Below are positions 263 to 43,715 of a stretch of 64,000 nt of DNA, piece by piece (the stretch's first letter is position 1; each line of letters begins with the position of its first letter). Under the pieces are notes generated by a model. The model was given only the letters and a program-made list of their open reading frames with translations, was not told the DNA's origin and made no database searches. Location: assembly GCA_000934665.2 (NCBI GenBank), contig KZ538464.1:1-64000 (forward strand), read 5' to 3'. The stretch is from Catajapyx aquilonaris (taxonomy: Eukaryota). The position numbers and the translations under genes are program-made.

Positions 263-3200
263 ACTAGCACCAAGAGGGCTTCTGATGAAGTGCTTCACAG
301 AGATGAACGTGATACACTTAAAATGTTGGAAGAAATCATGGGTGATTGCATTTCAGATAGCATCTTTGACCGTCAAATTGGATTAGATGCTGTCTACACT
401 TATTTGAGCAACTGCAAGCCACTTCCCGCACACCATCTTAATGTGCTTACTGAAATTCTGGCAGATATGTTTTATGATCCTTCCCCAAAGGTTAGAAATT
501 TTTCTTCTCATTTCAAGTAAAAAAGACACAATCTCGGTGTTGCACTGCCTACATGTAGTGACCTGTCACTTAAAATGTCATTGCATTTTATCGGACTATA
601 CAATATACTGTACCGTACTGTACCATACTTAATCAGAGGTAGGCAGGCAAAGCAAGTTATCATCGCATCTATAGGCTACTCTTACGCCTACCAATCCCGC
701 TTGGATGCATCTCTCTCACCTTAAAGCAAAGATATAGACATGATGCATGTATGATTCAGCTCACCTTCATCATGTGCTTTCATCAGTAATCTTGTAAGTT
801 GCATGTGGGTAATAAAGGCGCGTTTTCCAGGAAATGATCTTACCTGCGCTTATAGGTCCCATTAATGTTGTTGGTGAAAGTGTTTCAAAATGGAGTTAAT
901 TAGAAAAATTTAAGTTAAAAACTGTAGCAAAAGATTGATAATTATCAATCTTTTGCTACAGTCAAATTCCCAGTATTTTGACATATTATTTTCATAACTT
1001 CATCGCTCACATTAAGTTATCAGGACTGTGCAGACACTTAATCTGTTATTCTTATACTTGTACTAGTGGTACTGATGAATTTAGTTGCATACTATTCATT
1101 AAAACCTTGTTAAAACCTATTTAACAAAGTATCACTTCCAGGACTGATTTTGCTCTAGGTATCAATAACACAGGCCTGCGATGAAATTTTTTTCATGAAA
1201 GTGAGAGCTTGTTTCTTATGTATTTTTTAATGCTGATTTCGGGGAAAATACGCAAAATCTTCTGTCACCCACAGTTTTTGAGATATATCGTTTTAAAATT
1301 GGAACGATTTACTGCCAGGTCTTTCCGAATCAAGTGGGCCTAAATGTGCTAGACTGTCTCGGATCTTGGTCAAAATAATCGCAGATGTACTCAACTATTC
1401 CTTAATGCTGCTTATAAAATTTACACCATATTGCGCAATACCATGATGAGGAAAAAAATCGCAAAAATCTGGAAATGACTGAAAATGAGGCCTTTTAGGG
1501 AGAATATTTTTCGGTTAGTGGAAGTGATCAGCACCCAATGAACATATACATCAAAAGAACGAGAAACACCAGGAGAATGCGTCACTTGAATTAGTTTTCC
1601 TCTAAAATGCAAAAATAAATTTTCATAGCATTTCATTGGTCACTTGCTCAGTTACATGACCAAGAATTGTGACCTCAACAATTAGTGATGTGTTTGCGTT
1701 ACATCAGTCATATTTGGTGACACTAGTTGTGACTGACACAAGGTTCAGTATGTTAAGTTTGAGGCCTTGGTCATGCACGGTTCGCGAGAAAATAAGAGAT
1801 AATAATATATATATATATATATAAAATATACAGGGTGTTAATGAATTCCGCGTGACGCGTCTGAGCGCACCCGTTCCTTGTCTATGAACCCCCTCTAGAT
1901 GGCGTTTCCGGACACGGTTTCCTATGTCAAAAATGTTTGTCTTGGTCCCCTCTATTACCCCTACAAGTTTGTCGATTGAATTAATTAACACCCTGTATAT
2001 CACAGGCCTGCGATGAAATTTTTTTATTCAAAGTGACAGGTGTTTCTGGTAATTTTTGATGCTGATTTCGGGAAAAATACATAAAAACTTCTATCACGTA
2101 CAGTTTCGACACAAATCGAGAATTTCTGTCTGGTTGCCTACATACTGGGCGCGCTGCTATAAAAATGTGTCAAACCAATATTTAGCTTATAAAATAGGTA
2201 TTTCAGGTCAACGACGATAAATTTTTGACTTTGTGGTAGGTATGACAAACTGAACAAATTAATAAAATGAAAAATACAGCTTCTTTTAAATTTTTTTGGA
2301 AATAAAGCTTTTTTACTCTGCTATACTCTTCTGTGAGTTTCCTGAATCTTTATCTTCACTTTGTGGCAAAATCTGACGTGATAGAGGAAAAAGCTCGGCA
2401 TTTCTGAACTCAGCGTATCGAAATACCATAGAAACACATAACACTGTGCAGAAAAATAAATAAAAAAGTATTATTTCGCAGGCCTGTGTAATTTATCATG
2501 CAAGTTGTCCCTAATAATATTAGATGAAAAAATGAAACTCGCTTTTTCAGTATCTGTTCCTTGAGTTGTGAAAGCATAAAATTGAAACTCATGAATTTGC
2601 AATTATTTAGCACTTTCAATGACCACACAAAGTACTAGGAACGTTGCAGAATTTTCTTATTAGTGTTTATGGAAATGGTAGATTATGGCTAATTCTTGGA
2701 GTCGAATGTTGTTCACGAACAATAATTTTAATAAAAATTTAAAATGCACATTTTTGCACTACAAAGGCCTACTACAAAGTGTTGATTCCATGCACAAGGT
2801 ACTTTCTCCATGACAGGTGCATTGAAAATCTTGTTTTCCGGCAGGGTAAATACGATAGTCTGTTTGGAAAATAGGAAAATACATGTTATCATTATTTTGT
2901 GGAACATTATAAATTCACACAAATTACGTTCTTGATTTGCTTTTGTCCAGTTGTGAGTTCAACTGCTTGACAATTAATAGGTATAGTCTAACTCAGCTGG
3001 TCTAACTAACCTTCCTGTTTGATTTTTTCAGATACTACCTTTACTTCTAGATGCATTGGCAGAATTGCTTATCCATCATGGACCAGAGCTTCATGACTGG
3101 CTGAAAGTTTTTCTGTCTAGCACCCTTATGAGTATGAAAACTCATGATCTGCCCCAAGAAAAATTGAAAATACAGCGTATACTGGTTATTATCCGAGATC

Positions 3201-5771
3201 GTTTCCCACCTGAACTTCAGCTGGTTGCCCTGTGCAGCTGCCTTTCCAACTGCAACCTGCCTACAGACCTCCGAGTTTGTTTGTCCATTTTGTCCTCTAT
3301 CCTTGAGCTTGTCGAAAATAATATCAAGCCCGATGACTTTACGTCTGCGTCTACAACCTCGGAATTCCATTCAGCTATGATTCATATGATCGTATGGGCC
3401 AACTCAGATTCAGTTTTAGAAACCCCGATTATACCTCAGGAAGTGTGCAGGTCATCTCGACATGCCTTGCATGCTATGATGGCCACTAATGACCTTGACA
3501 TGCTTCGTGTCCTGGTAACCCTGCCAAGCAAGGTTAGGATCGTGGGGACCACAATCCTGTTTCCCAATGGGCGAAAGACTATTCCCAAAGTGAAACATTA
3601 TGCCAGGTCATTTTCCCCAGCAACATTCAACCCCCTTGGAACCATGGAGCATCAGGAATCTGCAGAAGGAAAAGAGAGCTACTTCTTTCAGCTCGGAGGC
3701 ATTTGTGATCAGAGGGAAGATAATTCGACAGGTTATTTGAAGAAATTGGACATAGACAAGGAGATAGAGAAGCTCCGCATATGTAGCCCCAGGGTAAGAC
3801 TGAATTTGGTAATACTCCTCTTAACCCTGGAACCGTGACCTGCCTGAAAGTTATGGCAACCATGACGTGGTGTCTTTTAGGACCCCATCCATATTTTAAT
3901 TTTTATTAATTATTATATGATACTTTTCAATGTATTGACTATATGCAATCATTCTTTGAACAATGCCTAAGATGATTGCTAATTCAAAATAAACATGCAC
4001 TTCCTGTTATATATGCCTACTTTTAAAAAATGGCAAAAGTTCATTGTAATATATATTATCATTTTAATGCATTTTAATTCCTTTTGGGGTCCTAAAAGAC
4101 CCCACGTCACGATTCCAGGGTTAAGTCTGAATGGGCTACTTAATCATTTGCAGACATCAAGAATGTCACAGAGATTACCTTCTCCAGTACGCAAATACAG
4201 ACAGGAGGCCTGTTTTGAGTACCAGATCGGCAAGGAAGCTCTGGGAAGCACAGAAAAGGCGATCGTGAATGAACTTCCTGATGTGATTCCGATAAGGAGA
4301 GACATGGAAGACGTACAAGAGATGGACGAGTATGAACAAGAGACGGACGAGGATGAACAAGAGATGGGCGAGGATAAACAAGAAATGGACAAGTATGAAC
4401 AAGAGATGGACGAGTTTGAACAAGAGATGGACGAGTATGAACTTCCTGATATTCTTCAAATAATGAGAGACAAAGAAGACGTACAAGAGGACGAGGATAA
4501 ACAAGAGATGCACAAGTATGAACAAGAGACGGACGAGTATGAACAAGAGATGGACGAGTATGAACAAGAGATGGACGAGGATGAACAAGAGATGGGCGAG
4601 GATAAACAAGAAATGGACAAGTATGAACAAGAGATGGACGAGTTTGAACAAGAGATGGACGAGTATGAACTTCCTGATGTTCTTCAAATAATGAGAGACA
4701 AAGAAGACGTACAAGAGGACGAGGATAAACAAGAGATGCACAAGTATGAACAAGAGACAGACGAGTATGAACAAGAGATGGATGAGTATGAACAAGAGAT
4801 GGACGACTATGAACAAGAGATGGACGACTATGAACTACCTGATGTTCTTCAAATAATGAGAGACAAAGAAGATGTACAAGAGGACGAGGATAATCTCCCT
4901 TGTACTGCAAATAAGATCTTGAGATCCCGCCGACATACACCCGTAGAAGATAGGCTTGAATATGTGCGGGACATACGTCGTTTGGTCACTGAAGACGACG
5001 TACAAACCATCATAAGGCATCACAGGTAAGTTCTTGGCTTGGTGCCTTTATTTACAAACTTGTAATAATGCCCCCGCCTTTACAGAATTATTTTGTTGGC
5101 CCTGATGCACCTTTTGGAAGACGACTGTGACAGCGTGCAGTATCAGTCTTTGATGACTATCTCAGAGATGGCGGCCCACAAGCAACTCTTGCGTATTTTT
5201 GGCGGTCTTAGGGGGTGCGTCATGGCTCAAGTCCTGCGAGCTTTTAAGGATCCAAGCAAAAATGTAACTCCCACTTATGCTTTAAGAACACTGCTTGCAG
5301 TCATGCCAATGTGGCCATCAAAACAATATACATCTTTTCTCTGTACAGGTGCAGCGTGGAGCAGAGGCTTGCGCCAATAAGCTCATGTTGTATTTCAACC
5401 CCTACAGAACGCTCTCTGTTCTCATTCCGGTTATTGATGAAGGTTCCTTCCCATTGAATGCAGTGGCAGTGGGGCTGGTGGCCATCCTAGCCCGATCTTT
5501 CACACTTAACTCCAGTCAGGGAAAATGTCTGTCTCTCTACCTGACCTTCCTCGTGGGAGGTCTCATAAAGATTATCGCGAATCAGGAGACGAAGACGAGA
5601 TGGGAAGTTTTCAAATGCCTAGGAGTCTTGAGCCTGCGGTTTGGAAAGAAAAAGATGGCACCCCTGCTCGCCAATCTCACTCGTCATCAAGAGCTACTCC
5701 TGCAGGTGTACATAGATAAGCAAAGAGATGATTTCGAAAGTGGAATCAATATCTTTCATAGAGATGATTGA
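263..5771 (+). CDS. CLASP: Divergent CLASP/Orbit/MAST-like microtubule regulator (TOG3, acidic repeat, CLIP-interacting domain); 5' exons upstream of window
   Basis: Phase-compatible GT-AG exons: 263-490, 3032-3793, 4154-5025, 5086-5263, 5349-5771 (TGA). Spliced protein aligns by eye to CLASP TOG3 (LNVLTEILADMFYDPSPK|ILPLLLDALAELLIHHGPELHDWL vs LKRLCEIFTRMFADPHGKVFSMFLETLVDFIQVHKDDLQDWL) and CLIP-ID (AFKDPSKN|VQRGAEACA vs AHKDPHKEVVRSAEEAA; LLQVYIDK vs LLNLYIKR). Low identity suggests a paralog rather than the main copy. Confidence 0.85.
1831..1995. mobile_element. Tc1/mariner-type MITE, internally deleted copy of the element at 50434-50997
   Basis: CAGGGTGTTAAT...ATTAACACCCTG termini with TA on both sides; body near-identical to one arm of 50434-50997. 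Confidence 0.85.
2001..2488. mobile_element. MITE with CACAGGCCTGCGA TIRs; a second left end at ~1169
   Basis: cacaggcctgcgatgaaat at 2001 and atttcgcaggcctgtg ending 2488; homologous left end plus body at 1169-1300. Confidence 0.7.
3825..4120. mobile_element. piggyBac-like MITE (TTAA TSD) in CLASP intron
   Basis: ttaa|ccctggaaccgtgac ... gtcacgattccaggg|ttaa, plus subterminal IR gtcttttaggacccca / tggggtcctaaaagac. Confidence 0.8.
4271..4892 (+). repeat. Coding minisatellite: 21-bp unit (EQEMDEY) in four higher-order blocks starting ELPD
   Basis: gaacaagagatggacgagtat repeats; blocks start at 4271, 4439, 4667, 4832; frame preserved throughout. Confidence 0.95.
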
Positions 5772-6644: not shown

Positions 6645-7855
6645 GACACTCACTCACTGACTGACTGGCTGACTCACTCACTGATCATCAAAATTATACG
6701 GTACTTCCCGTGGTCCTAGGATGCTGAAATTTGGTGTGCTGGTAGAGCTTGTCAAACAAACACCAGAATAAATATGAAAACAGCACTTTTTTGAGTGTAA
6801 ATGCTCAAAAAAAATAATTTATTTTCACGACGTCTGCTGCTGCTTTACCAGATGCGGCATTTTTACCACGGATTACTTTTTACTTTGAAATTCCAGTTAT
6901 GCTGGTGCTCCTCCTGCCTTCCCCACGTTCTCATCTCCTCGCCCCCCTCCCTTCCCCCCTCCTGCATACCGCTAGCCAACGACGTAGCCAGCCCCCCCCC
7001 CCCCGAAGTCTTGAGGATTTAAAAAAATCNNNNNNNNNNNNNNNNNNNNNNNNNNNNNNNNNNNNNNNNNNNNNNNNNNNNNNNNNNNNNNNNNNNNNNN
7101 NNNNNNNNNNNNNNNNNNNNNNNAAAAAATTTCGCCTGCGGCGGACCTCCCCGCTCCCCCCCCCGGATTCCTGGCTACGTCACTGCCGCTAGCTATCTGC
7201 CTGAAGCTGCGATTGCATTTCATACAAATACAAATATTTCATACAAATACAGCTACAAATACCTAAATACTTAAAATACAAAATAATACAAATACAAAAT
7301 TCGAGGTCATCAACAGCCTATGTGTACAGGGAACAATTCCCAATTTGTGTGGCGTATGCCATTACCATGCAGAGGACAGAGCCAAGGCCTGAGTCTCACT
7401 AATGCACTCATCGATATTGGTTCCTCTGTCTTCTCGTGCGGTCAAGCCTACGTGGCTCTTTCCAGAGTTAAAAGTATCAATGGAGTGCATCTCATCAATG
7501 CCTCCTTTACTAACATCAAGGCTCAAGAGTCTGCTATTCTGGAGTACGATAGATTGAGATCTATTTACCGACCAGACTTATCCATACTCAAAAGGGCTAA
7601 TAAGGCATCGACAGAAGTGGTTGAGGATCGCGAATGGGCTATGTGATCAGGTTTAGCAGATCTCCAATTCGCACAACCAGAACAGAAAAAAAGGAAGCGT
7701 AATATGACAAAGCAGAAGAAACTCATACCTATTCAGAGGAAAAGATAGAGTTTTACATTTTGCTCTAACAGTAAGTTATTCATTACCGTATTTGGAATAT
7801 TACGGACCATTGCTTCCACGCCCAACCGTAGGGGGCTCCCCGAGCTTTCTTATAA
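6645..7855 (+). mobile_element. Helitron/Helentron remnant with frameshifted PIF1-helicase C-terminus
   Basis: ~7315-7500 reads YVYREQFPICVAYAIT / SQGLSLTNALIDIGSSVFSCGQAYVALSRV (PIF1 motifs V-VI) across a frameshift; upstream (CACT/GACT)n microsatellite plus gctgaaatttgg motif typical of Helentron-associated elements. Boundaries approximate. Confidence 0.7.
6977..7185. mobile_element. hAT-type MITE nested in the Helitron remnant (spans an N gap)
   Basis: caacgacgtagccag ... ctggctacgtcactg TIRs with 8-bp TSD ccgctagc (6969-6976 / 7186-7193). Confidence 0.8.
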
Positions 7856-7893
7856 TATTATCCTACACTCCTGCCTACAAAAAGAGGTGAGAT

Positions 7894-10280: not shown

Positions 10281-10977
10281 TGCAATCAGACTTTAGCTTA
10301 TGTAGCTGTTCAGTTTAAAGGTGGTTGTGGGATTAAGAGTAAATTCAGAACAAGTGGCTGATCCTTTTTCATTGCTTCAAATATTGGGGTGGCTTTTTGT
10401 CTCTCACAGACAGTCTCTGCTATAGGAGCCTGCTTCTTCTAGTCAGGATTTTACAATAAACTTTCTCATGAGTAGTGAGCATGGTTGCTAGTTGTTGACA
10501 GCTGTATTGCTAACTATCAGTAAAATGAAAAATTGACCAATTGAATTGTTATGAACAAAGAATAACTAGGATCAACTACTTGTTTCTGGTTTACTCTACT
10601 CAATCATCCAACTGGCCTAAGTGATGCTTGTTGAACCTTGGATTATACCCTTTTGCACCACTAGCAGGAATAAGTCTAATAATTTATTTAAAACAATGAT
10701 GGCTTCTTGGTCTAACGGTTTTGAAACCACCCTATGTCATGCAAGTACATTTCAGTGAAACTTATTGTGGTCAGGTAATGGGATATCTGGAAAGGGTAGC
10801 ACCTTGAACAGATAGTGAGAACTCAGCCTCATCATATTTATTTTAAAAGTGCTCTTAAATTCCTCAATAGATGCATCTAAGTTAAATATGTCACCCTGTT
10901 TTCTCTCATTTGTTTTCCTCTGCCATAATCTGCTGCATTTGGGCTGTGTGTGGTGCATCATCAGGTGTTTGAGATAA

Positions 10978-13935
<2,958 letters not shown>

Positions 13936-14325
13936 GGCGCAGAAACTAACCAAGATGGATGTTGAAAATCTACTTGAATGGCCTTAAAGATTATAAAAAT
14001 AAGATTTTTAAGAACAGAAAGTTTTAAATCCATATGGCATTCAAATGGACCATTTAAGAAGATTTTCTTCAAAGTCCTTTACCATTGAGAAAAAATATTG
14101 CACTCAAAGCAAGTCTTAACATCACTGAGATGTCTTGAATATCCTGAGAAAATTAAAATTTCGTACACTAGATAAATCTTTATTTGGTCATGCACAGATG
14201 AAGCTCATTTTCTTTCAACCTAAAATTTTGGGGTTTTATTTTTTTCCAAAGTTATATTTTAAATATTACGTATTGCACTTACATTAAAAGTAGTCTAATC
14301 GAGATTTCCTCCAAACCTAGAGAAT

Positions 14326-14925
14326 ACAGTAAAACTTCTGTAAGTCGAATCTCCATGGGGCTGGAAAAAAACTTCGAGTTATAGAAGATTCGAGTTAGAA
14401 AAGTTTGGATTTTTTAAAGCATAGAACTCTACATATATAAGGAAGCCTCCCTTTACATCCATCGACAAAAGGTGTTCAAAACTTAAAAAATAACTGTCAC
14501 TATCACACTTACAAAGTTCCTCGTTGATTTGTTGTAAAAAAATCTTCGTTATGGACATTTGCCTACTCTTAGATTCAAGGATTCAATTGTCACAATCGAG
14601 TCAAACACTTCTTTCGGTACATCTGGTAGATGGAGATCAGGAAATTGAGCCTTTCTGTACATGTGGCCTACTCTCGACCCTTCGGCTGGGAAATGAGAAA
14701 ATTTTCCCTACTTGCCAACATGAACTTCGACTTAGGGAGACTGAATATGCATCAATATCCCATCGTAAGGCCCTGCCTGCAGTTATGACGAACTTCGAGT
14801 TATTGGCTCTTGGTTATAGAAATTCGAGTTAGGGAAGTTTATTTCCTATTATTTTACATTGTGACCAACCAAGCTCATCATTTTCTTCAACTAATAGAGA
14901 ACTCCGACTTAGGGAAGTTCGAGAT
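14326..14925. mobile_element. pogo/Tigger-like non-autonomous element (partial)
   Basis: ta|cagtaaaacttctgtaagtcgaa left end and repeated ttcgagtta/ttcgactta motifs; right end interrupted by a tacagggtggtcc mariner end at ~14925. Confidence 0.55.
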
Positions 14926-16210: not shown

Positions 16211-16410
<200 letters not shown>

Positions 16411-17760
16411 ACGACATTTCCCTGTAAGGGGTAGTCAGCGATGACGGGAGCCACAAGCTAACCCAAAATATGAACTAAATTAAAACTTGTAAAAATAAGC
16501 CTAAAAACAACCCGTCCCGCCCCCCACCCCTGCCCATCTCAGACGACAAACACTCAATATTAAATTTAAATTTGTATTTAAATTAATTGTATTAATTGTA
16601 TTGTATTAATTGTATTAATTGTATTGCTTGTATTAATTGTATTACTTGTATTAATTGTATTAATTGGATGTAAATTTGTATTTTGTGTTTAAATTTGTTT
16701 GTGTACCTGGGTAGTGTCCTTGAGAGTAATGGTAGAATGGATGGGGAGATTGACAGGAGAGTTAGTTCTGGGTTGAAAGTGATAAGTCGACGCCTAAGAA
16801 TTATATTGTCGTATGTCCAATGGACTTCCATTGGACATACGACAATATAATTCTTAGGCGTCGAAGTGCCACAAGTAAGTTTGCTAGAAATAAGGACTTA
16901 TCTTCTGCCTGTAGGTTGTCTGTCTATTCTCGCGTTATTGTTCCTTCACTTATGTATGGTAGTGAGGCTTGGGTTTCGTCAGATAGGCATAAGAGTAGGG
17001 TGTTGTGGGGTTACTAAGTTGGATCTAGGATTAGGAATGAGGAGATTTTTCAGAGGTGCAATGTTAAGGAGAGTGTTAAAGATAAGGTGTGTATTAGGTC
17101 TACTCTAATAGGCGGTTTGGCCATGTGGAGAGGATGAAGGAGGAGGAGATTGTGAAGAAGGTTTATTTGGGTGGAGTAGTTGGTAAGAGGGGAAAGGGTA
17201 GGCCTAGGAAGACATGGTTAGACCAGGTGGGTCAGTGTCTTAAGGGTGTTGCTAGTGTTAAGCCTAGACGTTCATGTGTCAATAGGACCATGTGGCTGAG
17301 GCTAAGGTTGTTTGTTTGGATAGGTGTAAATGGTGTAGGTTAATTAATGGGTAGAATATTCACAGGTTTGTGAGGCATGGCAGAGTCCATTGAATTTTTT
17401 CGAATGGCTAGAATGTTTGCAGGTTGGTGGGAGGATTCCCGATTCGGCATCAGGAAGTTCATACTCGGGCTTTGGGTGCTGTGCAGAACTACAAGTTTGG
17501 CAAATATCTCTTGCGCAGTAATGCATAGGTAGACACCGGTAGTCATGCTTGCAAGGGTATCTGCCTCTCTCTCTCTCTCTGTCCTGTACAGCACTTGGAG
17601 TTCGAGTATGGATTTCCGTATGCTGGTTCTTCTCGCTGGCCTGTGGGTGTTCTGGTCGTTTGGAGGAGAATATTCTAGTCACTTGGAGGAATTTAACAGT
17701 TGCTGATTCCTCTTCCAGGGGAGGGGGGGGGGGGCATTTTTTTTCGAAAAGTACCACGTT

Positions 17761-17761
<1 letters not shown>

Positions 17762-17833
<72 letters not shown>
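17762..17833. repeat. (TAT)n microsatellite
   Basis: Direct reading. Confidence 0.95.
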
Positions 17834-17835
<2 letters not shown>

Positions 17836-18350
17836 CTCAAAAGCAAGGGGCAATTATAAACTGAACATGCCATCATGATCTCCATAATAAAGACAATATT
17901 GCCAAAATTACCTAAAACTATATTTTGGGCTTAGATCAGCGAGACTATGGAGGAAGTGCAAACCTTTCACCACCTGTGTTGGGTAAATGCAAAATCAGTC
18001 TCTAGTAAGATACAGTCTAGAATGTTCCATGTGAAAGTGGTGATAATAATGCGATTATTGTTGGCTACTTTCAGTTTGCCTGTTGGGAAGCAACGGTTTG
18101 GTCAGTTAAAAGTGTTTGGTGAGTTAGGTTTTGGCGCAATTAGAGGAGCAACCTTGTCATCATTTTTATGCGACACGCTTACAGGAGAGAGCTGATTAAT
18201 AGACGAGCACTGATGACTTTACTAAGGGCTCAACTTGGACTAAAACCAGGCAGGCATACTTAAGGTGAGGGCCTCTTCATATGTAGTTTAATGAGCACCT
18301 CTTCACCCTTCATTATGTGCTATTCAATTATTGTTGTTACACATGTTTAA

Positions 18351-18821
18351 CCCTTAACTACGTAGGTGGGTGAAACACCTTTAACTACGTAGGTGGAGCC
18401 TGAGAGGCTCCAACGGTATATTTAAATTTCTGCTTATCAACTAAATTGTTATATTGGACTTTTCACATACAGAAAGTGCAGTTCAGATCATTAGGCTTCC
18501 GATAACGTAAAAATCACACGCAGAGTCTGCATATTCCGACAGGGAAAAATTCTTAATTAAAAGGTTACATCATGCTTGAGCCGCTCAGTCTTCACCTGCA
18601 TAGGTAGAGCCAGTATAGAGTCCAGGAGGGACCTGTTCCTCGTTACGAATTTTTTTAAACCAAACAATAGGGACTTTAAAAAAATTTCTTTCCTTTTCAT
18701 GCTTAGGAAGGTTTGTCTGACAAAGTCACGGAAGGACAGGGGAAAATAAAATTCGATGAAAAAGTTGCATGCGTTTAAATAGTGCTTGGAGCCTCTCAGG
18801 CTCCACCTACGTAGTTAAGGG
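18351..18821. mobile_element. piggyBac-like MITE (TTAA TSD)
   Basis: ttaa|cccttaactacgtaggtgg ... ccacctacgtagttaaggg|ttaa; flanks form the palindrome acatgtttaaacatgt. Confidence 0.9.
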
Positions 18822-18918
18822 TTAAACATGTGAATAAGGCACAAGTGATGCCAGATGTATATGTGGTGATAAAATGACCCTCTCATATTGTTAATGTTGG
18901 AGGAAGTGATTAATTTCA

Positions 18919-19270
18919 GGGAGACGGAGTAGCGCTGCGGTAATGTACTCGCCCACGGATGTTAAGGTCCCGGGTTCGAACCCAACCTGGGGAGACCTCC
19001 TTCATCTTGTGCAGAGTTCTCGGGTCATCTCTGGCTTCGTTTCGGGTGGTATTTCTGACAGACTAAGCCACCCAGGGGAGCTCGCAAAATGACCTTACTA
19101 GTCGATGCACTGCACCTTGCACATCCCCTCCCAGTCCCCCTGACTGTAGGCCCGGGCGCTTATTCTAACATGACCTAGGCTTCTATAGGACTTCAATCGA
19201 TGGTGTATAGGAGCAATGGCTCTCCCCGAATACCCTGTAAGGGGTGGCAAGGGGTATTACAAAAAAAAAA
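18919..19270 (+). mobile_element. tRNA-derived SINE with poly(A) tail and 15-bp TSD
   Basis: A box tagcgctgcgg, B box ggttcgaaccc; TSD aagtgattaatttca at 18904-18918 and 19271-19285. Confidence 0.9.
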
Positions 19271-20020
19271 AAGTGATTAATTTCATAAAACTGACACTAC
19301 AGTTATTTGATGGTCAGAGAAAGAATATGATGGTGTCATGCTTTCTAACAATGCCAGTCAGTGGCAAAATACCACTGACTACTACTTGAACATTATTTTT
19401 ATGATAAAGGGCTATTGTGCATGATGCCTAAATCAGTTTGAACAATAATAATGTGACTTTAATTTTATTATTCAGCATGCCATCCAGAGCGATCCAGGTT
19501 ATCATTTACCTTTGAGGTTGGATTCGCAAGTGACCACAGGTATAACTTAGGTTTTATGGAGTAACTATAGCTTGAACGTAGTTCTGTTTCCATCTTGGCG
19601 AAATAAAAAACTGCAACATGTGCAACGTACCTAAGTTTTGCCCAACTGCAAGTACGGTTTCACATTTCGTAAATGACACACCAGTATATAATTATTTTGA
19701 ACTGGCATTAACATTTATAGAGTAGGACGACTAATATCAACCAGAGCCCTATTTCAGAAATTAGTATCACTGCAATATTTGTTTGATGTAGGTATTAGTA
19801 AATTCGACTGATATACTGTAGCCTATTTTTCTGTTATAGCGATTCGTCTCATAAGCATAAAGTTGAATATTGCATTAACATCATTCCGATGTCATAGTAC
19901 TCTCTGGGATGCTAGGGTCAGCGTACTCTCAAACCACCATGAAACCCTTACTTTTTTCCATTTCTTGTATCGATATATTTGTATAATAAATTTATTTATT
20001 TCTTCTGGTACAGATTCACT

Positions 20021-23000
20021 ATGGGCAAGAACAATCAGGCATATATCGTCCCTCGATATCTTCATGACACCAGCAGGAAGATTTCCTATGAAATTGGAGA
20101 GTTCCTCGGAAAGGTGTGTGTTCAAGATATACCTTAGTCTAAAGTCTAAACTCTAAATAGTGCTTTTTATGGCGAGCCAAAATGCGAGTAATATGCGAGT
20201 GTGCCTGGATGTTTTATAATTTCAGTTAACTAATATTACCAACTCAAGTCAAAGGAATACTTTTGACAAAAATGTAGTGCACAGTGTTTAGAAGGAAGGC
20301 TAAATATTTTAATAGTGACTCTACAGAGATATAGAGTCTTTCATTTTCACCTTGATAATTTTGTGTTAGATTCCTCTGTATGCAAAATAAAAAGATATTT
20401 CAGAACTGGGGGCGTAAGTGGTGGTGTTTGGTGAAGTAGTGTCTGTAGAAAGCCTCATGTGACGCATATAATGACAACAAGAAACAAACAAAGACGAACA
20501 AAAAATACATTTAACTATACAATGTCACCAAATAGGTTTCTTACAGAGTGGAAAGTGTTTTTATCGATGACCACTACAATGTCATTAACACCTTAACATT
20601 GTGCTTGAAAATAGCCTTCATCAATATTGGTGACCGCATCTGACAGTATTATTTTTGCCATTACAGGGGAGCTACTCCGAATGCTATGTATTGAAGAATC
20701 AGAGTACCAATGAGCGCTATGCAATTAAAATAATTAGTAAGCAAGTGCTTGCAAGCGCTGCCAAGGAACAATTGGAACAGGAAGTTTCGATCCATCAACA
20801 GCTAGACCACATTCATGTTGTGAAATTTTACAGTTCGTTTGAAGATGAACACAATTCGTACCTAGTGTTAGAATTGTGCCAAAATGGGGTAAGGAGTGTC
20901 TTTCTGCCCTGGTTATATGGTCTGCTCTGATCTTGACCCTTGCCTATTTCAGGATGTAGAGGGCCTCCTCAATACCGGCAAAGTGTTCACAGAGTCTGAG
21001 GTGCGTTACTTCATAAGACAACTATTGTTGGCAGTAAGGTATTTTCATGAAAATGAAATTATACACCGTGACTTGAAGCCTTCCAACATGTTCCTCAACT
21101 CCTCTGCTGAGCTAAAAGTTGGCGATTTTGGCTTTGCAGTCCGGGAAGACAATGAGGAAGGGTTGAGGTTAGTGCCTTGTTTGTGTTTACGCTCTTATAC
21201 TTTCAATGGTTTTGTAGGATTATAAGGACACATTCTGCAGTGCAGTATTATCATGATTTACGACAAGGGCAAGTATTGGGAGTTGGGAATGACACAATCT
21301 CTGATTCAAAAGTATACCCCGCCCAGAATATAAGAAATTATCATACTATAGTGGAAAAACGAGAAAAAATGTTTTTATAACTTATAGCCTACACATAGTG
21401 ACATGGTAGAGAATGAAGAGTGTCACAATATTCAAGGAACATAATTCCAAAATAGATGGTGTTGTGCAAGCGCCATCTCTCTATTTTCGTCTCTCTCCTT
21501 CAGAAATAAAGATATGTCCAGCTTAGGAGCAGTTCACGTCAGGGTCGTTGAAGCACACCTCCACCACCCCGGCAAGGTGACGACACTATTAGATAAATGC
21601 GAGTTTGGCCTGCCACAATAATAAGTCATTTGGGACATGTCCTTTCCTCATAAGGAGTTGCTGTGCTGACTGAATGTAAAATCATTGGTCGCTCCTTACA
21701 AAAATGGGACTGAGTTATATATTTTTGATGGTATTACTTTCCTAATTTCTTGGAGAAGCTGTGGCTTTTGGAGTGACCCAAAAATGTAAAACACTACAGT
21801 TGGAACAGAAGTCATTGCCCGTATTTTAAATTCGAAGACCACTACGGTGATTAACCATATGTGATGAGCTGCCCGAGTGCTATCTAATGCGACAAAAACA
21901 GCATGTTGTTAACCTATCAAATTATTTCAGAACACAAAATGTGCTATTCTTCGGAAATGGTGAGGTGTGGCGGGGATGATGTAGTTACTTTTTTGGCTAA
22001 TTTATGTAGGGTTTCTTTTGAGAATGGTGTACATAGTTCCTAGGGATTGGAGGGATGCTATTATAGTACCTCTGTATAAGGGTAAGGGAAATGTGTGTGA
22101 CTGCAAGAATTATCGTGGCATTAGTTTGTTAAGTGTACCAGGGAAAGTGTATGCTAAGGTTTTGATAGAAAGAGTTAACAGGGTCACTAGTCAGAGAATA
22201 CTGAATATTCAGAGTGGGTTTATGTCGGGTAAGAGTTGTGTAGATGAGATAATTATTCTGTATGAGACTCGTGATAGAAAAGTATTTAGCTGTAAACAAG
22301 AAGGTTTATGTTGCCTTTGTAGACTTAGAGAAAGCCTATGACACAGTGAGTAGGGAAGGTTTGTGGGAAGTTCTGAGTCTCTATGGAGTGCATGCCTGTT
22401 GGAGGCTGTAAAGTCATTGTATGAAGAGAGTAGAGCTTGTGTTAGAACTAGTGGGGGTTTCTCTGACTGGGTTAACATTAGTGTTGGGGTTAAGCAGGGT
22501 TGTGTCTCCCTGGTTATTTAACTTGTACTTAGATGCATGTATAAGGGAAGCTATGGTTGAAGGTGTAGGAGTGCAGTTTGGTGATGAGTTAGTTAGTCAC
22601 TTGCTGTATGCAGATGATTCTGCCCTTCTGGCGGAGAGTGAGGCTGATTTACAGTTGATCCTATGCAAGTTAGATAATGTTTGTGAAAAGAGGGGTATGA
22701 GGATTAACGTAGATAAGACTAAGGTATTTGTATTTGAAAGAGGACAGTAGGTTTCTCCTTGTATGTTGCAGGTACGCGGAAAACTGGTTGCGCAGGTCAA
22801 CCAGTTTGCATACCTGGGTAGTGTTCTTGAGAGTAATGGTAGAATGGATGGGGAGATAAACAGGAGAGTTAGTTCTGGGTTGAAAGTGATAGGTGCCACA
22901 AGTAAGTTTTCTAGAAATAAGGACTTATCTCCTGCCTGTAGGTTGTCTGTCTATTCTCACGTTATTGTTCCTTCATTATATATGGTAGTGAAGCGTGGGT

Positions 23001-26000
23001 TTGGTCAGATAGGCGTAAGAGTAGGGTGTTGGCTACAGAGATGCGTTATCTCAGGGCTGTTTGTGGGGTTACTAAGTTGGATAGGATTAGGAATGAGGAG
23101 ATTTTTCAGAGGTGCAATGTTAAGGAGACTGTTAAAGATAAGGGGGCCGTCCAGACGGGCCAACCTTAGCCGCGGCCAACCGCGGCTGGTCGAGGCCGCG
23201 ACTGTTCACACGGCAACGGCCACGGCCAGGCCACGGCTCAGAAGTTGGCCAAGTTGGCCGACTTCCTGGAAGTTGGCTCGCTGCTTGGCCACGGCTTGGC
23301 CTCGGCGACGGATACTGCGCGTCACTTGTTTTTCGTCGCTGCCATGACTACCGGCCACTATTACAACTGCGGGTGGCTGTTATTAAAATATGTGCCCGTC
23401 TGAACGGGTACCGTGGCCAGCCGTGGCTCCGCAAGCCGGGGCCGACGCCAGGGCCGCGGCCAGCCGCGGCTAAGGTTGGCCCGTCTGGACGGCCCCAAGG
23501 TGTATAGGTCTACTCTAAGGTGGTTTGGCCATGTGGAGAGGATGAAGGAGGAGGAGATTGTGAAGAAGGTTTATTTGGGTGGAGTAGTTGTTGGTAAGAG
23601 GGGCAAGGGTAGGCCTAGGAAGACATGGTTGGACCAGGTGGGTCAGTGTCTTAAGGGTGTTGCTAGTGTTAAGCCCAGACGTTCATGTGTCAATATGACC
23701 ATGGACGTGGATGAGGCTAAGGTTGTTTGTTTGGATAGGTGTAAATGGCGTAGGTTAATTAATGGGTAGAATATTCACGGGTTTGTGAGGAATGGCAGTG
23801 TCCATTGAATTCTTCTGAATGGCTAGAATGTTTGCAGGTTGGTGGGAGGAGTCGGCGTCTGGAAGTTCATACTCGGTCTCTGGGTGCTGTGCAGAACTGC
23901 AAGGTTGGCAGATATCTCTTGCATAGTAATGCATAGGTTGACACCGGTAGTCATGCTTGCAAGGGTGTCGGCCTCTCTCTCTGTCCTGCACAGCGCTTGG
24001 AGTTCGAGTGTGGATTTCCGTATGCTGGTTCTTCTCGCTGGCCTGTGGATGTTCTGGTCTTTGGAGGTGAATATTCTAGTCAATTGGAGGAGTTTAACAG
24101 TTGCTGATTCCTCTTTCAGGGAGGGGGGGGGGGGGGCACTTGATTTCTNCTCTGTATAGTGTAAGATTTAAATTTAATATTGAGTGTTTGTCGTCTGTGA
24201 TGGGCAGGGGTGGGGGATGGGACAGGTTGTTTATAGGTTTATTTTTACAAGTTTTAATTTAGTTATTATTTTGGGTTAGCTTGTGGCTCCCGTCATCGCT
24301 GACTAGCCCCTATAGGGAAATGTCGTGATGGTGATGATGATGATGACAAAATAGGAACCACTTTATTCAGAGTTAGTCAGAACTTCAGGTCAATCCTCCT
24401 TCATGATAATCGTTGGCTCAATACAAATATAAAATACAGGAGCAAATAATGCCGAAAATCCAACATTTAACGATGTAGCCAACTCGACAATGCAATTAGG
24501 ATGGTCACATTTGTCTCAACAATATCCTAACCGCCAAATTTGTGGTTTAAGGCTCGGTTTTCGACATTTTTCACCCACACATTTTCATTTGTTTTGAACC
24601 AACGAGTACTGGGAGACTACCCTAGTTAGATTGACCTGGACTCACCCTGCTGTACTAATATTGTTTTCCCTTATACAGAAAACAATGCGGCACACCGAAC
24701 TATATCTCACCAGAAGTCATTCGAAGGAAGAATACCCAGACTCGTGCTGTTGATATGTGGGCAATTGGGTGCATACTATACGAGATGATTATTGGGGATC
24801 CCCCATTTATGGCCAAGACGAGGAAAAGGACTTTCAGGAGAATAGTGAAAAACGCCTATTATATACCGGATGACGTGGGAGAATTGCCCCGATCATTAAT
24901 AACGCTACTTCTTCATGACGATCCTATCATGCGACCAACAGCTACAGAGGCTCTTTTAGATCCTTTCATGGCATTGGACCCCTATCCCGGGCAGTTGGAA
25001 ATATCCCTCCTCATCGAAGCTTTACATCTTACGCCTAGAAGTGACAATAGCATCGGTATGGCTAAATAGGGAGGCATTATCGGAGTCTAGAAAGAGCTGC
25101 ATTTCTTGTGCTTACATCTTACAATCACTTGGGCCTGAAAATTATGTTGCACTTAAATATCACTTGCTCTTCCAAGTCAATTGGAACAATAATTAATTAT
25201 TATTCAAGAATATGCCCAATGATGTCATTTAGTGATTGCAGTATTATCGTAGCTGCTGAGTTACGTTCCTGTAACATGCAAGTTGCTTTGAAAAATGGCT
25301 AGAAGATAACTGCTAGTTGCAACTGTCCCTGTAGTTTTGAAAAACTTGTAGCCTACAGTGTTAATCCTCAATTCCTACTCACCAGCAGTGGCTCCAGTGG
25401 CACCCGAACCCATCAGATTACCCCCTAACAAATCTGTTGAAAACTCAGCAGACAAAGAGATCCATGATTCCTACCCTGGACACACAATACAGCAAAGGGG
25501 GAATTCGATAGGATCCAAGTCACTAGATTCAGTGCACAGTACTTGTGTTCTTGACATTAATGGAGGAATGAATTTAGTTCTGGTGGATGGGCAGCTTGTC
25601 TTTACTGATGGAGAGCAAGCAGTGAAGATTCTTCATTGCTCAGATCCAGAGCAAGTGCGCTGTGAGGACTACCCTATTGGTGGTAAGTGTGGTTGACCAG
25701 GGCTGACCCCATCACCACATGCTCGTTTATTCACTGTAATCACTCATCCCATCTCTTGTACTGGACAGCTCTTATTGTGCCAGAGGCTCCCAAAGAGCCA
25801 TCACATGTCCCCTTGCACCAGCCTGGGGTCCAAGACTCACTTCCAGCACCCCAGTTTGGCGAAGTTGCTCCTGGGGATAAAAATATCTTGACACAAGGCA
25901 AGTTATGCTCTACGCATTATTTTGGTCTGATATTAAACACTGGGCAACACTGACAAAGGCTTTCAAATGAAAATAGCAAATCTTCACTTATTTCGAGTTA

Positions 26001-26270
26001 CTGAACACGAAGATGACGTTGATTGGCTCTAGTTTAGGAGAAACAGGCATGGTCATAATCATGGTCATGTATACATACTGTACACATCACAGAGGAACCA
26101 CGCGAATTTCTATGTGAAGTTCATGTTCAAATGGTGTTTTTTCAGGTTATCTATCTGCTAGTAAGAAAACAGCTCACCTGAAAAGCCCTAGATCTCAACA
26201 GTTTTTGAGATGCAGGGGTCAAAAGGTCAAAAATGGATATATTATGCAAGGCTCTAAGGAAGCCATATAC
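20021..26270 (+). CDS. polo: Divergent Polo/PLK1-type Ser/Thr kinase; 3' end unresolved, no recognisable polo-box domain
   Basis: Kinase exons 20021-20113, 20667-20888, 20953-21167, 24679-25055; putative tail exons 25386-25682, 25769-25897 (GC donor), 26146-26270; all phases compatible. IVPRYLHD..SYEIGEFLGK|GSYSECY, AIK, EVSIH, VLELC, HRDLKPSNMFL, DFG, CGTPNYISPE, DMWAIGCILY..IGDPPF, DPIMRPT match Plk1-3 kinases. Confidence 0.85.
21951..24346 (+). mobile_element. 5'-truncated RTE-clade LINE (RT pseudogene, 3' UTR, (GAT)n tail) in Plk intron 3
   Basis: IIVPLYKGKG..NYRGISLLSVPGKVY, QSGF, AFVDLEKAYD, SPWLFNLY, LLYADD, LRWFGHVERM; frameshifts and stops. Confidence 0.95.
23143..23496. mobile_element. 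GC-rich PIF/Harbinger-like MITE nested in the RTE
   Basis: ggggccgtccagacgggccaaccttagccgcggc TIRs, 3-bp TSD AAG; empty site gataaggtgt visible in the other RTE copy (~17081). Confidence 0.9.
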
Positions 26271-26870
26271 GTAAGTTATATTGGAGAGATTTTTGGTGCA
26301 TATAGGTTTATTGGGATGAGGAATAAAACGGTAAAGCTGGAAATACTGAATATTATGAAATATAAGGGTACTTCTTTGGGAAGATTATGGGTAAGAGCAT
26401 CAAAAAATATGAAAAACAGATAGAATTTTTTCTAGTGCATGAAAGAAAGATGTTTCGACATGACATAAACACCCAAGATGGTGATTTTGATTATCCCTAA
26501 TGTAAATATTGTAGGTATTATTGATTTTTCCAGAATGCAATTGAATACGTGATTTTGAAAAGGGCAAGATTCAATGCCCTTTTCATGGGAATATTGACCT
26601 TTTCAAAATGACCGATTCAATATTGTCTTCACATTTTTATAGACCTATTCAATTTTTCTTCTACGGTACTACGTTGTCAGTGATGAAGCCAATACTGTAC
26701 AGATTACGGTTTGTTTAGTTTACTTAATTAGGAGTTTTTAAAAAAATGTTACTAGCAGATTGGCTTATCTTTTAAAAGTTGTATTATGTTGTTTTTGCTT
26801 TTGCTCTGTGTTTTGGTGACATTCATAAAGCCACCCTGATCCATGTACTTTATAATAATTGCTATTTAAT

Positions 26871-27237
26871 GGGGAGATGAAGTGCCGCCGCGGTAACGCG
26901 TGCGCCCACGGATATGAAGGTCCCGGGTTCAATCCCCACCCGGGGTTCCCACCTTTATCCATGCAGAGTTGGGCCATCTCTGGCTTCATTTCGGGTGGCA
27001 ATTTCCGACAGACTAAGCCACCCGGGGGAGTTCACAAAATGACGATTAGAGACATTGCACTTGCACTTTGCACATCCCCTCCCACCCACCCTTGGAGTAC
27101 ACTAATAAGATTCTATCTTAACTCGCTCCAACTAAAACCCCAATGGTGATAATCCACCCCCCCCCCCCTAAGGAGTACGTAACTCCCCCCGTGGGGTAAT
27201 GAAAAAAAACAACAAAAAACAAAAAACAAAAAAATAA
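26871..27237 (+). mobile_element. tRNA-derived SINE (same family as 18919) with 16-bp TSD
   Basis: B box ggttcaatccc, A-rich tail, TSD taataattgctattta at 26853-26868 and 27238-27253. Confidence 0.9.
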
Positions 27238-27750
27238 TAATAATTGCTATTTACATGGGAGTTAATAGAATTCACTACTTTGGGTGTGGAATGCACTGCC
27301 TAAAACCTCCCCCTGCTTTCAAGCACTTGAAAATACTGTTTTAAGTCATACTTAAACCCTTTACTGGTACATATATGTCATATCTACTATGTATAGCTTT
27401 ATTATATAAGAAATTATTGCAGATTTCTCAGAAACCGTAGCCAATTTTGCATTTTCATTGTCATATTCCTGTTTATCACCTTGAAAGCATTAAGAAATGG
27501 CCACTGTAATTTCCGAGCCATGACTTTTGTCCAAATTATTTTGTTGCCCAGTGTATAGGCCTAATGATTCAGATAAACTGCCATCAGCAACCCAACTTTC
27601 ACTACCATATGACTTTCTGGACACCTGTGAATCACTTTATGTAGGAGCGTCATTTGGTCTCCGCAGTCTCATTATTGAGATAATTAACATTAATCTATAT
27701 GAGTCTCATACAGTAGATGGTGGATACTGCCTATACGTCACTTCCATTGC

Positions 27751-30700
27751 CTAGGCCGCTTCATGTTCCCCCAAATGAGTTCGAATTGCTAAGTGTATGG
27801 TATCACCTCTATTTAATTAAAAAAAGGTACGGTCGGCCGAGGGAAGCATACCTGCCAAGTATTTGAAGCCCATTGCCTCGGTGCCCAAGCTGTGGAGACC
27901 ACCAATGGTGACCAACTGACATCTCTAAATAAAATGATCCTCTTCTGGCCAAGAACTCAGTTAAAGGGTTCCTTGAATCATTATGAAACATCTTGTATAG
28001 AAAAGTGTTATTTAGCCTGAGGAAGTGCAGCTTATTATTGTGGCGCTTTGTACTGTCCCACTAATGTACCCATGTGTCCCAAAAAGTTGTGGCCACTTGC
28101 ACATTACTGGGGCTGGGGCATATAATGTGTGGCCACAACTTTTTGTGACCAATAGTATATGGTTGTGTCCTACTCCCAACATAGAGTAGGAGATTGATAG
28201 GTTTGCCATTGCTTCCGTAGATGTCCGACACGACTAATCCATGATATGATCGTGTGTGCATGCCTGCTTCGACACTTTTGCTACCTTAACGCTGGTAAGT
28301 GACAAATAGTGCTTCAGCATCATATTCTGTACAGAGAAATCCACTAATGAGTCAAAAGAAACCAGTTTCGAGATAATCAAAAGCAAATATTATTTTGACC
28401 TTGTATTTGTTTACATGCTACTGAGTACGGATAATCCTGGTTCATTACTAATGTTTAGGACTAAATGGACTTTACCAGCCCATAGAGCAGGTTCGAGAAT
28501 TGGGTTTTCGTTCTCGCTCATTACGCTTTCTCGCTAAGGCCGTTTCTTGCGAGCTTAAGAATACACAGTCTATATACTCGTAGTGATGTAAATATACCTT
28601 ATTATTCAAAATGGCCAAAATAAGAGTGGATTTCTCCTGTATGCCAACTACATACGAGTACAGTGTATTGCAAGTATTGGGGGTCCTTTAGTCATCGCAA
28701 ATTTCGCTCGAAATTGTTATTTTTGTGTAGCTTTTTTCGTTCTGATCGAGGTGCAGCAGTCGTTATGTTCGACCACACCTGGGAATAATAATGTGCACTT
28801 CTATCCAGGCACAAAAAGCTACACAAAAATAATAACTTCGGGCGAAATGCTAGAACTAAAATAACCCCAATAATTGGAACACACTGTATAATTAGTGCTA
28901 GGAATTGAAATAAATAACATCATATTTTTTAAATACCTGTCACAGATACGGATGAGAAAATGTCATCCTGTTCATCCATGGATATATTGAAGACGTTCTC
29001 AGTATTTATCGGCAGCAGGTGGGGATAGAGGCAGGGAAATGCAGGCTAAAGGGGATAATCAGGAATGAGTCTTAGTTATCACATTAGGGCACATGTGTCC
29101 TTATCAGGGTCATGCTAAGATATTTGGGAAGGAAAGGGTTGGGGGCGGAGGGTGGGGGAGAGGAGGAGGATTTGCCTCCGCTATAGTCCCTCCTATTGAG
29201 TTAATTCTGTTCTCTACTTTGTTTGTTTGGAACAACCTGACTGACACACCTCATAGGTTGATGAGTTTTAAGCACCTTACAGTTTGCCTGTATGCGATTT
29301 TGTCCTATCGGCATACAAATTTAAGAATTCAAATCACCGATATATGCAGCAAATGCGTATGCAGGCCTATGTAGTTCAGATGAAGCCAGGATGAAGCCCA
29401 CCTGCAAGAAACACAGTACTACTAGCCGTAAGTTTTTTTTTCACATTTTAATACCTTGTTAACGGCTGCAGTCAAGATATTTACCCATCAACACACGATT
29501 TTGAAACCTTCCTAACACAGGTAATGTAGTACACAGTCATGTTGTCGAATGGGTATTTTTAAAAAATTGCTTATAAACACGTATGCAGTGTACACATTTG
29601 ATCCCGACCATGGCATACAGTTTTTAAAATATATAGCTCAGGATATGACTTAGGGGTGTTTTATTCCAAAACATATGACAATGAAGGGGGCAGGCAGGTG
29701 GGGGATCTTCTCACAATATCATAGCACAATATATTACTAGACAAGGAGGACTAAGAATGAAGGTTAGGAACGTGTCATCTGGTTCATCTGGTGGAGCACC
29801 CTCCACACCGCTGCATTGACTGATGCTGGGCGGTGGACATCCGAACAGATGCATGTCCAAGGCAGATAATCTTTCATGACCACATTACAGACAGGCGTGG
29901 AAGTCAATGTGTCCATGACACACCTTATAAACCGGAAGGAGATACAAGTATATGAGCAAGTAAGTCACATAACCATTCTATCACAGGTTATGGTAAAGTG
30001 CCAAGACCTTTATTTACTACCTAACCCAAAAAAGTAGCTGGATTGTGGATGTTTCTTAGCGCACATGGCATTTTTATTGCTTACATGCATCAAGCACTGC
30101 CCCTAGATATTCATACAGTAGGCCTATACGTACAGTACCATCCTCCCATGAGTGTGTCTAATTCTAATCTAATGCAATTATTCTAAACTGAACATGACAT
30201 TATTATCTCCTAATGAAGCCGTTATTGCCAAACTGAACTAATATGATAATTTTGTCCTTATATATTTTCAAGTAGACAAAATCCAAGAGGAGGAGCAAAT
30301 CTTTCCCCACCTGTGGGACATAGCCTTAATGCATCATCTATCATTTGCTAGACACAGCCCAGAATATTCTACATGAAAGTGGTGACAAGGAATAATTGTT
30401 ACCTCTACGATGTGTCAATTGGTACTGGTACGTAGGACTTTATTTGCATGTAAAATAAATGTAAAATCGCCAGTCGAAATCGCTTTTGAAATGGTCCGTT
30501 GGTGAAAAATTGCAGGAGGTTGGAATGATCGTGGATATAAAAGTGTCAAACCCTCAGCCATAGCTGCATAGTCTGCAGAATAGGTTGCCGCTAATGCCAA
30601 CTCAGACAATGAAACTTGTCTCTCATTTTGGCATTCTCTAGAGGTACAGTAGGGCCTATACATTCATTGTTTACTAAATCTGCCCCTTGAAACAAAGGCT

Positions 30701-30880
30701 CCTAATTTTCAACCTTGCTTTGCAGCGAGACTTATATTACCAGTGTTTTGGTATATTCTTCTACAATTCAGCCTACTCCGAAGATTTTGGAACTTCTAGC
30801 AAGCAGCATACAGACGAGTGCCCCGACAACTTCTATAAAGATATATGGACCAAAGCATATACACATTTATTCAATCTGCA
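27751..30880 (-). pseudogene. Decayed spliced SNX9/18/33 (SH3PX1)-like PX-BAR gene
   Basis: GT-AG bounded - strand exons: 30880-30714(?), 30637-30403, 29923-29738, 29401-29281, 29045-28937, 28326-28174, 27924-27852, 27788-27751. Motifs IYR*FEFLNLYADR (~VHRRYKHFDWLYAR), WMNRMTFSHPYL*Q|NMMLKHYLS (~SNX18 [22 protein letters not shown]), QLVTIGGLH (~SNX9 ELLTVGQEH). Many stops and at least one frame break. Confidence 0.55.
28661..28886. mobile_element. Palindromic MITE (TA TSD)
   Basis: ta|cagtgtattgcaagtattgggg ... ccccaataattggaacacactg|ta. Confidence 0.75.

Positions 30881-43644: not shown

Positions 43645-43715
<71 letters not shown>

Follow-up and report, generated by a model that had tools for sequence, protein, structure and literature searches.

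Whether unrelated genes of cell division and translation that lie side by side, each strongly altered, form a functional unit or came together by chance is the question raised by the first 64,000 nucleotides of contig KZ538464.1 of Catajapyx aquilonaris (assembly GCA_000934665.2), the whole of which was analysed here and is called the window. A sequence-only reading had proposed that this DNA holds a cluster of four diverged genes with altered domains, related to CLASP, PABP, Polo and SNX9. Three of the four claimed genes are real and carry the stated domain changes, whereas the SNX9-like member was not found. The CLASP-like, PABP-like and PLK-family genes are consecutive and arranged in tandem on the + strand within 25 kb. 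They are intact, intron-bearing, long-branch and domain-trimmed genes, and with moderate confidence we regard them as lineage-specific duplicates that arose at the DNA level and evolved fast under continued selection for an open frame. The window has a G+C content of about 40% and contains transposon debris, microsatellites and five runs of N. The models of the three genes were assembled by hand from the DNA (Table 1). All modelled introns (11 of 11) are of the GT-AG type and the spliced frames are open in all three genes, in agreement with the proposal of three consecutive, intron-containing open genes on the + strand.

The PLK-family kinase gene was modelled as 306 codons in four exons. The junction of exons 1 and 2 restores a normal glycine loop (MGK...FLGK/GSYSEC, with the slash marking the junction). 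In a PDB sequence search, PLK chains were the best matches for all three kinase exons searched: exon 2 matched PLK1 (E 4e-12), exon 3 matched PLK2 (E 5.5e-19) and then PLK1, and exon 4 matched PLK1 with an E value of 4e-26 versus 1e-17 for Aurora A. The kinase is 39-40% identical to PLK1-type proteins and 34-35% identical to PLK4. All catalytic motifs are kept, including GKGSYS, YAIKI, HRDLKPSN, GDFG and SPE. The activation loop reads GLRKQCGTPNY, in which the Thr position, occupied by Thr or Ser in 7 of 7 aligned PLKs, is lost, as had been claimed for this gene; we take this position to be that of Thr210 in human PLK1. The accompanying claim that no polo-box is visible also held. A Pfam hmmscan of the read-through translation did not find POLO_box (PF00659) on the + strand from 25000 to 43200, and tblastn of three polo-box-bearing PLKs against the whole window gave no polo-box match at E<=10. 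The stretch 25352-25693, downstream of the stop codon, matches no Pfam family and gave no usable Atlas match, and its single-sequence AlphaFold2 model has a pLDDT of 38.

At the 5' end of the kinase gene, 20547-20629 was tried as an N-terminal exon with a degenerate glycine loop and was rejected for a phase mismatch, while 20021-20113 fits. The third kinase intron, 3.5 kb in length, contains reverse-transcriptase (RVT_1) fragments of an element resembling a long interspersed nuclear element (LINE) at 21985-23769. Between the PABP-like and kinase genes, open reading frames (ORFs) at 16766-17343 have translations very similar to the 3' part of this LINE-like element.

A documented likeness to the kinase is Dpse-polo-dup1, which is described in excerpts of its report as a testis-expressed, fast-evolving polo duplicate of Drosophila pseudoobscura and as a lineage-specific extra PLK1-type gene, all domains of which evolve much faster than those of the canonical copy (PMC11708218). 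In the same excerpts, its authors interpret it as a male-germline specialisation or a hypomorph, and at about 14% divergence it retains, free of indels, its kinase domain, linker and complete polo-box domain (PMC11708218). Compared with Dpse-polo-dup1 as described there, the window kinase is about 60% diverged from PLK1-type proteins and has neither the T-loop Thr nor a detectable polo-box. A phrase search of the literature found no natural PLK without a polo-box. To our knowledge, no natural PLK1-type kinase lacking both the polo-box and the activating Thr has been described.

The PABP-like gene encodes 439 codons from ATG to TAA. Pfam detects three RRMs rather than four, one in each of the first three exons, and RNP1 and RNP2 motifs are discernible in all of them. 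Judged from the sequence, RRM1-2 are related specifically to PABPC and keep the RNP motifs. Over about 270 aa, the protein is 63-66% identical to 13 arthropod PABPs and 57% identical to one fish PABP, and its nearest relatives are decapod, myriapod and odonate PABPs. The third RRM consists of the N-terminal half of RRM3 and the C-terminal half of RRM4, joined at their shared GFGFV motif. Of 120 listed PABP matches, 4 were unusable, and in all of the 116 usable canonical PABPs the 47 residues up to GFGFV are nearer to RRM3 and the 45 residues after it nearer to RRM4. The missing stretch corresponds to the 102-105 aa that separate the two GFGFV motifs of canonical PABPs. The chimeric halves and the missing stretch bear the mark of a single in-frame deletion from the RNP1 motif of RRM3 to the homologous one of RRM4. 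Moreover, Pfam found no MLLE domain (PABC, PF00658) on the + strand from 12500 to 20700, and the frame ends within a linker-like tail. The proposed loss of one RRM and of MLLE is thus supported on both counts. The arrangement of RRM1, RRM2, chimeric RRM3/4 and tail was not found among the 120 listed PABP matches, beyond which no wider search was made.

A further change lies in RRM2, where the motif NGLMLN (12076-12093) stands in place of the NGMLLN present in 117 of the 120 listed canonical PABP matches. The altered Met presumably corresponds to Met161 of the human protein and may be an eIF4G-binding residue. Changing Met161 to Ala abolishes eIF4G binding, according to excerpts of a study of the mammalian neuPABP/PABPC1L2, a tissue-specific protein without RRM3/4, linker and MLLE whose own RRM2 changes prevent eIF4G binding (PMC10546976). 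Like the window protein, neuPABP as portrayed there is derived from PABPC and keeps poly(A)-binding RRMs, and with the loss of MLLE it has no PAM2 partners such as PAIP2 (PMC10546976). It differs, as far as those excerpts go, in being composed of RRM1-2 only, while in the window protein RRM1 and RRM2 are followed by a chimeric RRM3/4 and a linker-like tail. PABPC5 and PABPC4L are further truncated, tissue-specific PABPC paralogs of mammals.

Acceptor-like sites, each with a pyrimidine tract and AG, were noted 43 nt 5' of the PABP-like ATG (10960-11007) and 7 nt 5' of the kinase ATG (19990-20020), so each of these genes probably has an upstream non-coding exon. Trinucleotide microsatellites, (ATT)44, (ATC)23 and (TAT)24, occupy 16211-16411 and 17762-17833 between the two genes.

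The CLASP-like gene has introns of 2541, 360, 60 and 85 nt and a spliced open frame of 820 codons to TGA. Because its exon at 263 opens at a good splice acceptor, further exons probably lie 5' of the window. Pfam recognised no family in the CLASP-like exons. In the PDB sequence search, the stretch 3023-3838 of the gene matched TOG3 of CLASP2 (3woz, E 7e-10) and the stretch 5286-5771 matched the CLASP2 C-terminal domain (8whh/8whj, E 8e-7 over 125 aa), and blastp matched the latter domain to the C-termini of 9 of 10 CLASP representatives at 21-28% identity. Searched against 1.84 billion representatives, the TOG3 exon gave only 24 matches at E<=1e-3, the best at 5.6e-9, with 25-40% identity. The AlphaFold2 model of this domain has a pLDDT of 85-97 over residues 1-183, and its best fold match is again 3woz (E 7.8e-8, TM 0.58/0.64, rmsd 2.6 A), although the model rests on an alignment of CLASPs and is hence biased towards the CLASP fold. 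On sequence and model together, the protein is assigned a TOG3 domain, and the sequence matches indicate a C-terminal domain of the type by which CLASPs bind CLIP, LL5beta and CENP-E.

With the CLASP family (CLASP1/2, Drosophila Orbit/MAST/chb and C. elegans cls-1/2/3), the gene thus shares a TOG3-like domain, by sequence and predicted fold, and a C-terminal domain, by sequence, in identical order. It differs in being only 27-34% (TOG3) and 21-28% (C-terminal domain) identical to the 10 CLASP representatives. In addition, its linker is a repeat with 41-49% acidic residues that is missing in 16 relatives: Asp and Glu make up 49% of 150 aa of this linker versus at most 24% in each of 16 CLASP relatives of at least 300 aa. 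The gain of an acidic repeat by CLASP, as proposed earlier, is therefore borne out, and the repeat is young, having expanded recently. TOG1, TOG2 and the SxIP/Ser-Arg-rich region, if they exist, would lie beyond the window.

Most of the second CLASP-like intron (360 nt) is taken up by an insert of about 300 bp (3820-4125) resembling a miniature inverted-repeat transposable element (MITE), with inverted ends at 3820-3842/4103-4125 and 3858-3887/4085-4114 that start with TTAA-CCC. Such ends recall, we presume, piggyBac-type elements. Were the insert removed, the intron would have about the length of the two that follow it (60 and 85 nt). An 'introner' was considered for this intron and rejected in favour of a short intron holding a TTAA-flanked MITE.

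The divergence of the three genes was gauged against a BTB-BACK-Kelch gene downstream, which served as an internal rate control. The Kelch protein is 73% identical to an orthopteran protein, its best identity, and falls with insects, copepods and a shrimp in an unresolved group of a 21-sequence tree. Together with the affinities of the PABP-like gene, this makes a pancrustacean origin of the DNA probable. Its end branch (0.33) equals the median (0.33), in line with the earlier description of this gene as ordinary. Fast evolution is thus not a general trait of the lineage. The end branch of the PABP-like protein is 1.23 versus a median of 0.074, or 17 times the median, in a tree that leaves its placement unresolved, and that of the CLASP-like protein is 3.54 versus a median of 0.48 in an 11-sequence tree, or about 7 times the median. 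The closest protein in the collections searched is 53% identical for a kinase exon and about 66% identical for a PABP exon, and tblastn found no further copies of the three genes elsewhere in the window.

Neutral substitution was then simulated for each coding sequence until amino-acid identity had fallen to the level observed. The frame stayed free of stop codons in 13 of 1000 runs for the RRM part of the PABP-like gene, in 0 of 1000 for the kinase and in 0 of 1000 for the CLASP domains. The simulation leaves out indels and is conservative in this respect. As frames are almost never kept open under neutral drift, the genes are, or recently were, under selection, and the open frames, the 11 canonical introns and the kept catalytic and RNP motifs together argue that the proteins diverged for the most part under selection. 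The descriptive half of the earlier claim, namely strongly diverged yet intact copies with retained introns and altered regulatory parts, therefore stands.

We propose that canonical CLASP, PABPC and PLK genes were duplicated in one lineage and then evolved fast. The presence of introns points to duplication at the DNA level, and canonical copies elsewhere in the genome are inferred, not observed, because a genome whose only PABPC lacks MLLE, or whose only PLK1-type kinase lacks a polo-box, is implausible. Published precedents, namely Dpse-polo-dup1 (PMC11708218) and neuPABP (PMC10546976), fit this proposal. Each gene retains its core working domain, and the parts that link it to partners and regulators are lost or altered. 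The biochemical consequences can be predicted from these changes. The kinase would not be switched on by the usual phosphorylation of the T-loop, and would neither dock to primed substrates nor be auto-inhibited through a polo-box. The PABP-like protein would retain poly(A) binding without recruiting PAM2 partners (PAIP, eRF3, PAN3, TOB and GW182). The CLASP-like protein has TOG3 and the C-terminal partner-binding domain, separated by a recently expanded acidic repeat of about 250 aa. Duplication followed by fast evolution with the frame kept open is typical of tissue-restricted paralogs, often of the male germline. The adjacency of the three genes is not explained by this proposal and may be due to chance.

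Several points weigh against the proposal of fast-evolving duplicates. The label 'paralog' depends on the argument from implausibility. The gene models are hand-made and open-ended, on the 5' side for the CLASP-like gene and on the 3' side for the kinase. A polo-box exon may be too diverged to be recognised, and a strong donor borders the possible further exon at 25386-25686. For the kinase, the comparison drew on a small and odd set of 7 proteins retrieved through shared words, so that the subfamily placement of the kinase stays unresolved in the tree. Finally, the simulation is a rough one that starts from the present sequence, uses extant proteins as its yardstick and takes no account of indels or of changes in the canonical genes.

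The sequence-only reading had gone further, suggesting a co-regulated germline or meiotic module such as a testis-specific cluster, which we consider unlikely. The tandem arrangement on one strand within 25 kb fits a module, as do the long branches of all three genes next to a Kelch neighbour without one, and excerpts of published work document both fast-evolving, testis-biased polo duplicates (PMC11708218) and germline-specific PABPC paralogs in vertebrates (PMC10546976). Against a module, the genes are spaced 5-6 kb apart, with transposon debris and microsatellites in the gaps. A crude comparison of the 600 nt 5' of the PABP-like and kinase ATG exons found five short, mostly AT-rich 9-mers in common and no shared 9-mer motif of note. 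Moreover, the cytokinesis-linked fourth member, the claimed decayed SNX9-like gene, is not there on the Pfam and PDB searches made. Pfam gave no SH3, PX or BAR match at E<=1 in 54 minus-strand ORFs of at least 30 aa between 25700 and 31500, and none in stop-read-through translations of the minus strand from 1 to 31500; the longest candidate ORF had no relevant match among PDB sequences, no tblastn with an SNX9 protein having been made. The cell-division theme thereby loses one of its supports. In addition, the window was picked from a very large scan, in which a chance trio is not negligible. The germline module stands as a hypothesis.

Alternatively, CLASP, PABPC and PLK1-type genes could all evolve fast in this lineage, with the three genes of the window as its sole orthologs. 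The protein collections hold no close relative of the species, the best identity even of the Kelch protein being 73%, which leaves some room for this view, but we judge it quite improbable. The Kelch branch of median length speaks against it. Canonical arthropod PABPs are 79-98% identical to a shrimp PABP, and even the fish PABP is 74% identical to it; the NGMLLN motif so widely kept among the listed matches is changed here. PABPC and PLK1-type proteins are customarily defined by MLLE and the polo-box, respectively, both of which are regarded as important for function, and the loss of these parts weighs against sole orthologs as well.

A B chromosome, a sex-limited region or a segregation-distorter locus that gathers diverged copies of cell-division genes is a very improbable source of the three genes. 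B chromosomes of the migratory locust are described, in the available part of that report, as carrying active cell-cycle paralogs such as apc1 (bioRxiv 10.1101/683417), further cases are indicated in plants, the region is rich in repeats and assembly gaps, and the expansion of the acidic repeat is recent. An ordinary, conserved, multi-exon Kelch gene lies 17 kb downstream, however, and the three genes have diverged to a much greater depth than the small number of B-specific changes reported for the locust (bioRxiv 10.1101/683417), both of which argue against a young B-type origin. Least probable of all is that the genes are unexpressed relics that have recently lost their function: regulatory domains are lost in all three and transposons have inserted into introns, but the frames are open, every modelled intron is canonical, catalytic and RNP motifs are kept and neutral simulations rarely or never leave such frames open, although a very recent loss of function would still be possible.

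Taken as fast-evolving duplicates, the three genes add new architectures to a familiar kind of event, the trimming of diverged paralogs. Extra copies of housekeeping genes that evolve fast are known to give rise to functions confined to particular tissues, often the germline, and these three are notable for the parts that they have dropped. A PLK1-type kinase without polo-box and activating Thr would be a natural experiment on an untethered kinase domain, and a PABPC that lacks MLLE and has RRM3 and RRM4 cleanly fused would separate poly(A) binding from partner recruitment. A bolder and decidedly unlikely possibility is that the genes form a linked, jointly expressed toolkit, by which a single cell type, most plausibly in male meiosis, would have its spindle control and mRNA storage rewired, or which would serve a selfish, drive-type chromosome. 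It would combine a free-running PLK-family kinase beyond T-loop activation and polo-box targeting, a CLASP with an acidic linker resembling a tubulin tail, and a poly(A) binder blind to the recruitment of deadenylase and PAIP. If the genes are co-expressed, a single compact locus would show how the control of spindle and translation can be rewired in linked genes; if they are not, they would be three useful, separate cases of paralog trimming.

Table 1. Coordinates of the features recognised or sought in the window, and the evidence for each.
Feature	Position	Strand	Evidence
CLASP-like exon, start of TOG3-like domain	263-490	+	Polypyrimidine tract and AG at 261-262; donor GT at 491; in frame with next exon
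CLASP-like exon, remainder of TOG3-like domain	3032-3793	+	PDB 3woz match; AlphaFold2 model; splice sites
CLASP-like exon with acidic repeat (linker from TOG3 to C-terminal domain)	4154-5025	+	Phase-0 360-nt intron before, 60-nt intron after; frame open
Acidic tandem repeat: 21-bp (7-aa, EQEMDEY-like) unit x25 and 228-bp higher-order unit x2.2, 97% identity	4315-4835	+	Tandem Repeats Finder
CLASP-like exon, start of C-terminal (CLIP-ID/TOG4-like) domain	5086-5263	+	Splice sites; in frame; blastp 21-28% to CLASP C-termini
CLASP-like last exon, stop TGA at 5769-5771	5349-5771	+	PDB 8whh/8whj match (CLASP2 C-terminal domain); ATTAAA at 5803
PABP-like exon 1, ATG and most of RRM1	11008-11173	+	Pfam RRM_1, E 3e-12; splice donor
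PABP-like exon 2, end of RRM1 and most of RRM2	11594-11874	+	Pfam RRM_1, E 2e-16; splice sites
PABP-like exon 3, end of RRM2, chimeric RRM and start of linker	12061-12577	+	Alignment with yeast Pab1; Pfam RRM
PABP-like exon 4, Gly/Pro/Gln-rich linker-like tail, stop TAA at 13933-13935	13580-13935	+	Splice acceptor; frame
Kinase exon 1, ATG and first half of glycine loop (..FLGK)	20021-20113	+	Scan for phase-0 donors after LGx motif
Kinase exon 2, N-lobe, AIK lysine	20667-20888	+	Pfam Pkinase, E 2e-16; best PDB match PLK1
Kinase exon 3, HRD and DFG, start of activation loop	20953-21167	+	Pfam Pkinase, E 6e-19; best PDB match PLK2, then PLK1
Kinase exon 4, T-loop RKQCGTPNY without Thr, C-lobe; stop TAG at 25067-25069, alternative donor at 25056	24679-25069	+	PDB PLK1; alignment of 7 PLKs
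Possible further kinase exon, coding status unproven	25386-25686	+	Open frame; strong donor GGTAAGT at 25687
Place of claimed decayed SNX9-like gene, no gene recognisable	25700-30880	-	Pfam on ORFs and read-through; PDB search
BTB-BACK-Kelch gene (KLHL 'diablo'/KLHL12/20/24-like), internal rate control	42821-56002	+	tblastn

Other features of the window are mainly repeats. An ORF at 7287-7646 (+), which adjoins the assembly gap at 7030-7123, has a weak Pfam Herpes_Helicase match below the cut-off (E 0.0085) and may be a Helitron- or PIF1-type fragment. An Rfam scan of the window gave one tRNA-like sequence as its sole match (63925-63992, minus strand, Rfam tRNA, 31.7 bits). Stretches at 15200-15580, 18910-19092, 26859-27149 and 44646-44969 have similar translations and resemble short interspersed nuclear elements (SINEs); together with the tRNA-like sequence, they are probably tRNA-derived SINEs scattered through the window. 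An unnamed repeat is present in three copies, at 1704-2027 (-), 50395-50667 (+) and 50745-51095 (-), the ORFs of which share a long, nearly identical peptide; the latter two copies form an inverted pair in an intron of the Kelch gene. The long intron of the Kelch gene also contains a GC-rich patch (52% G+C, 44-46 kb) with a large inverted duplication, 44981-45499 (-) and 45840-46421 (+), the ORFs of which have nearly equal translations on opposite strands.

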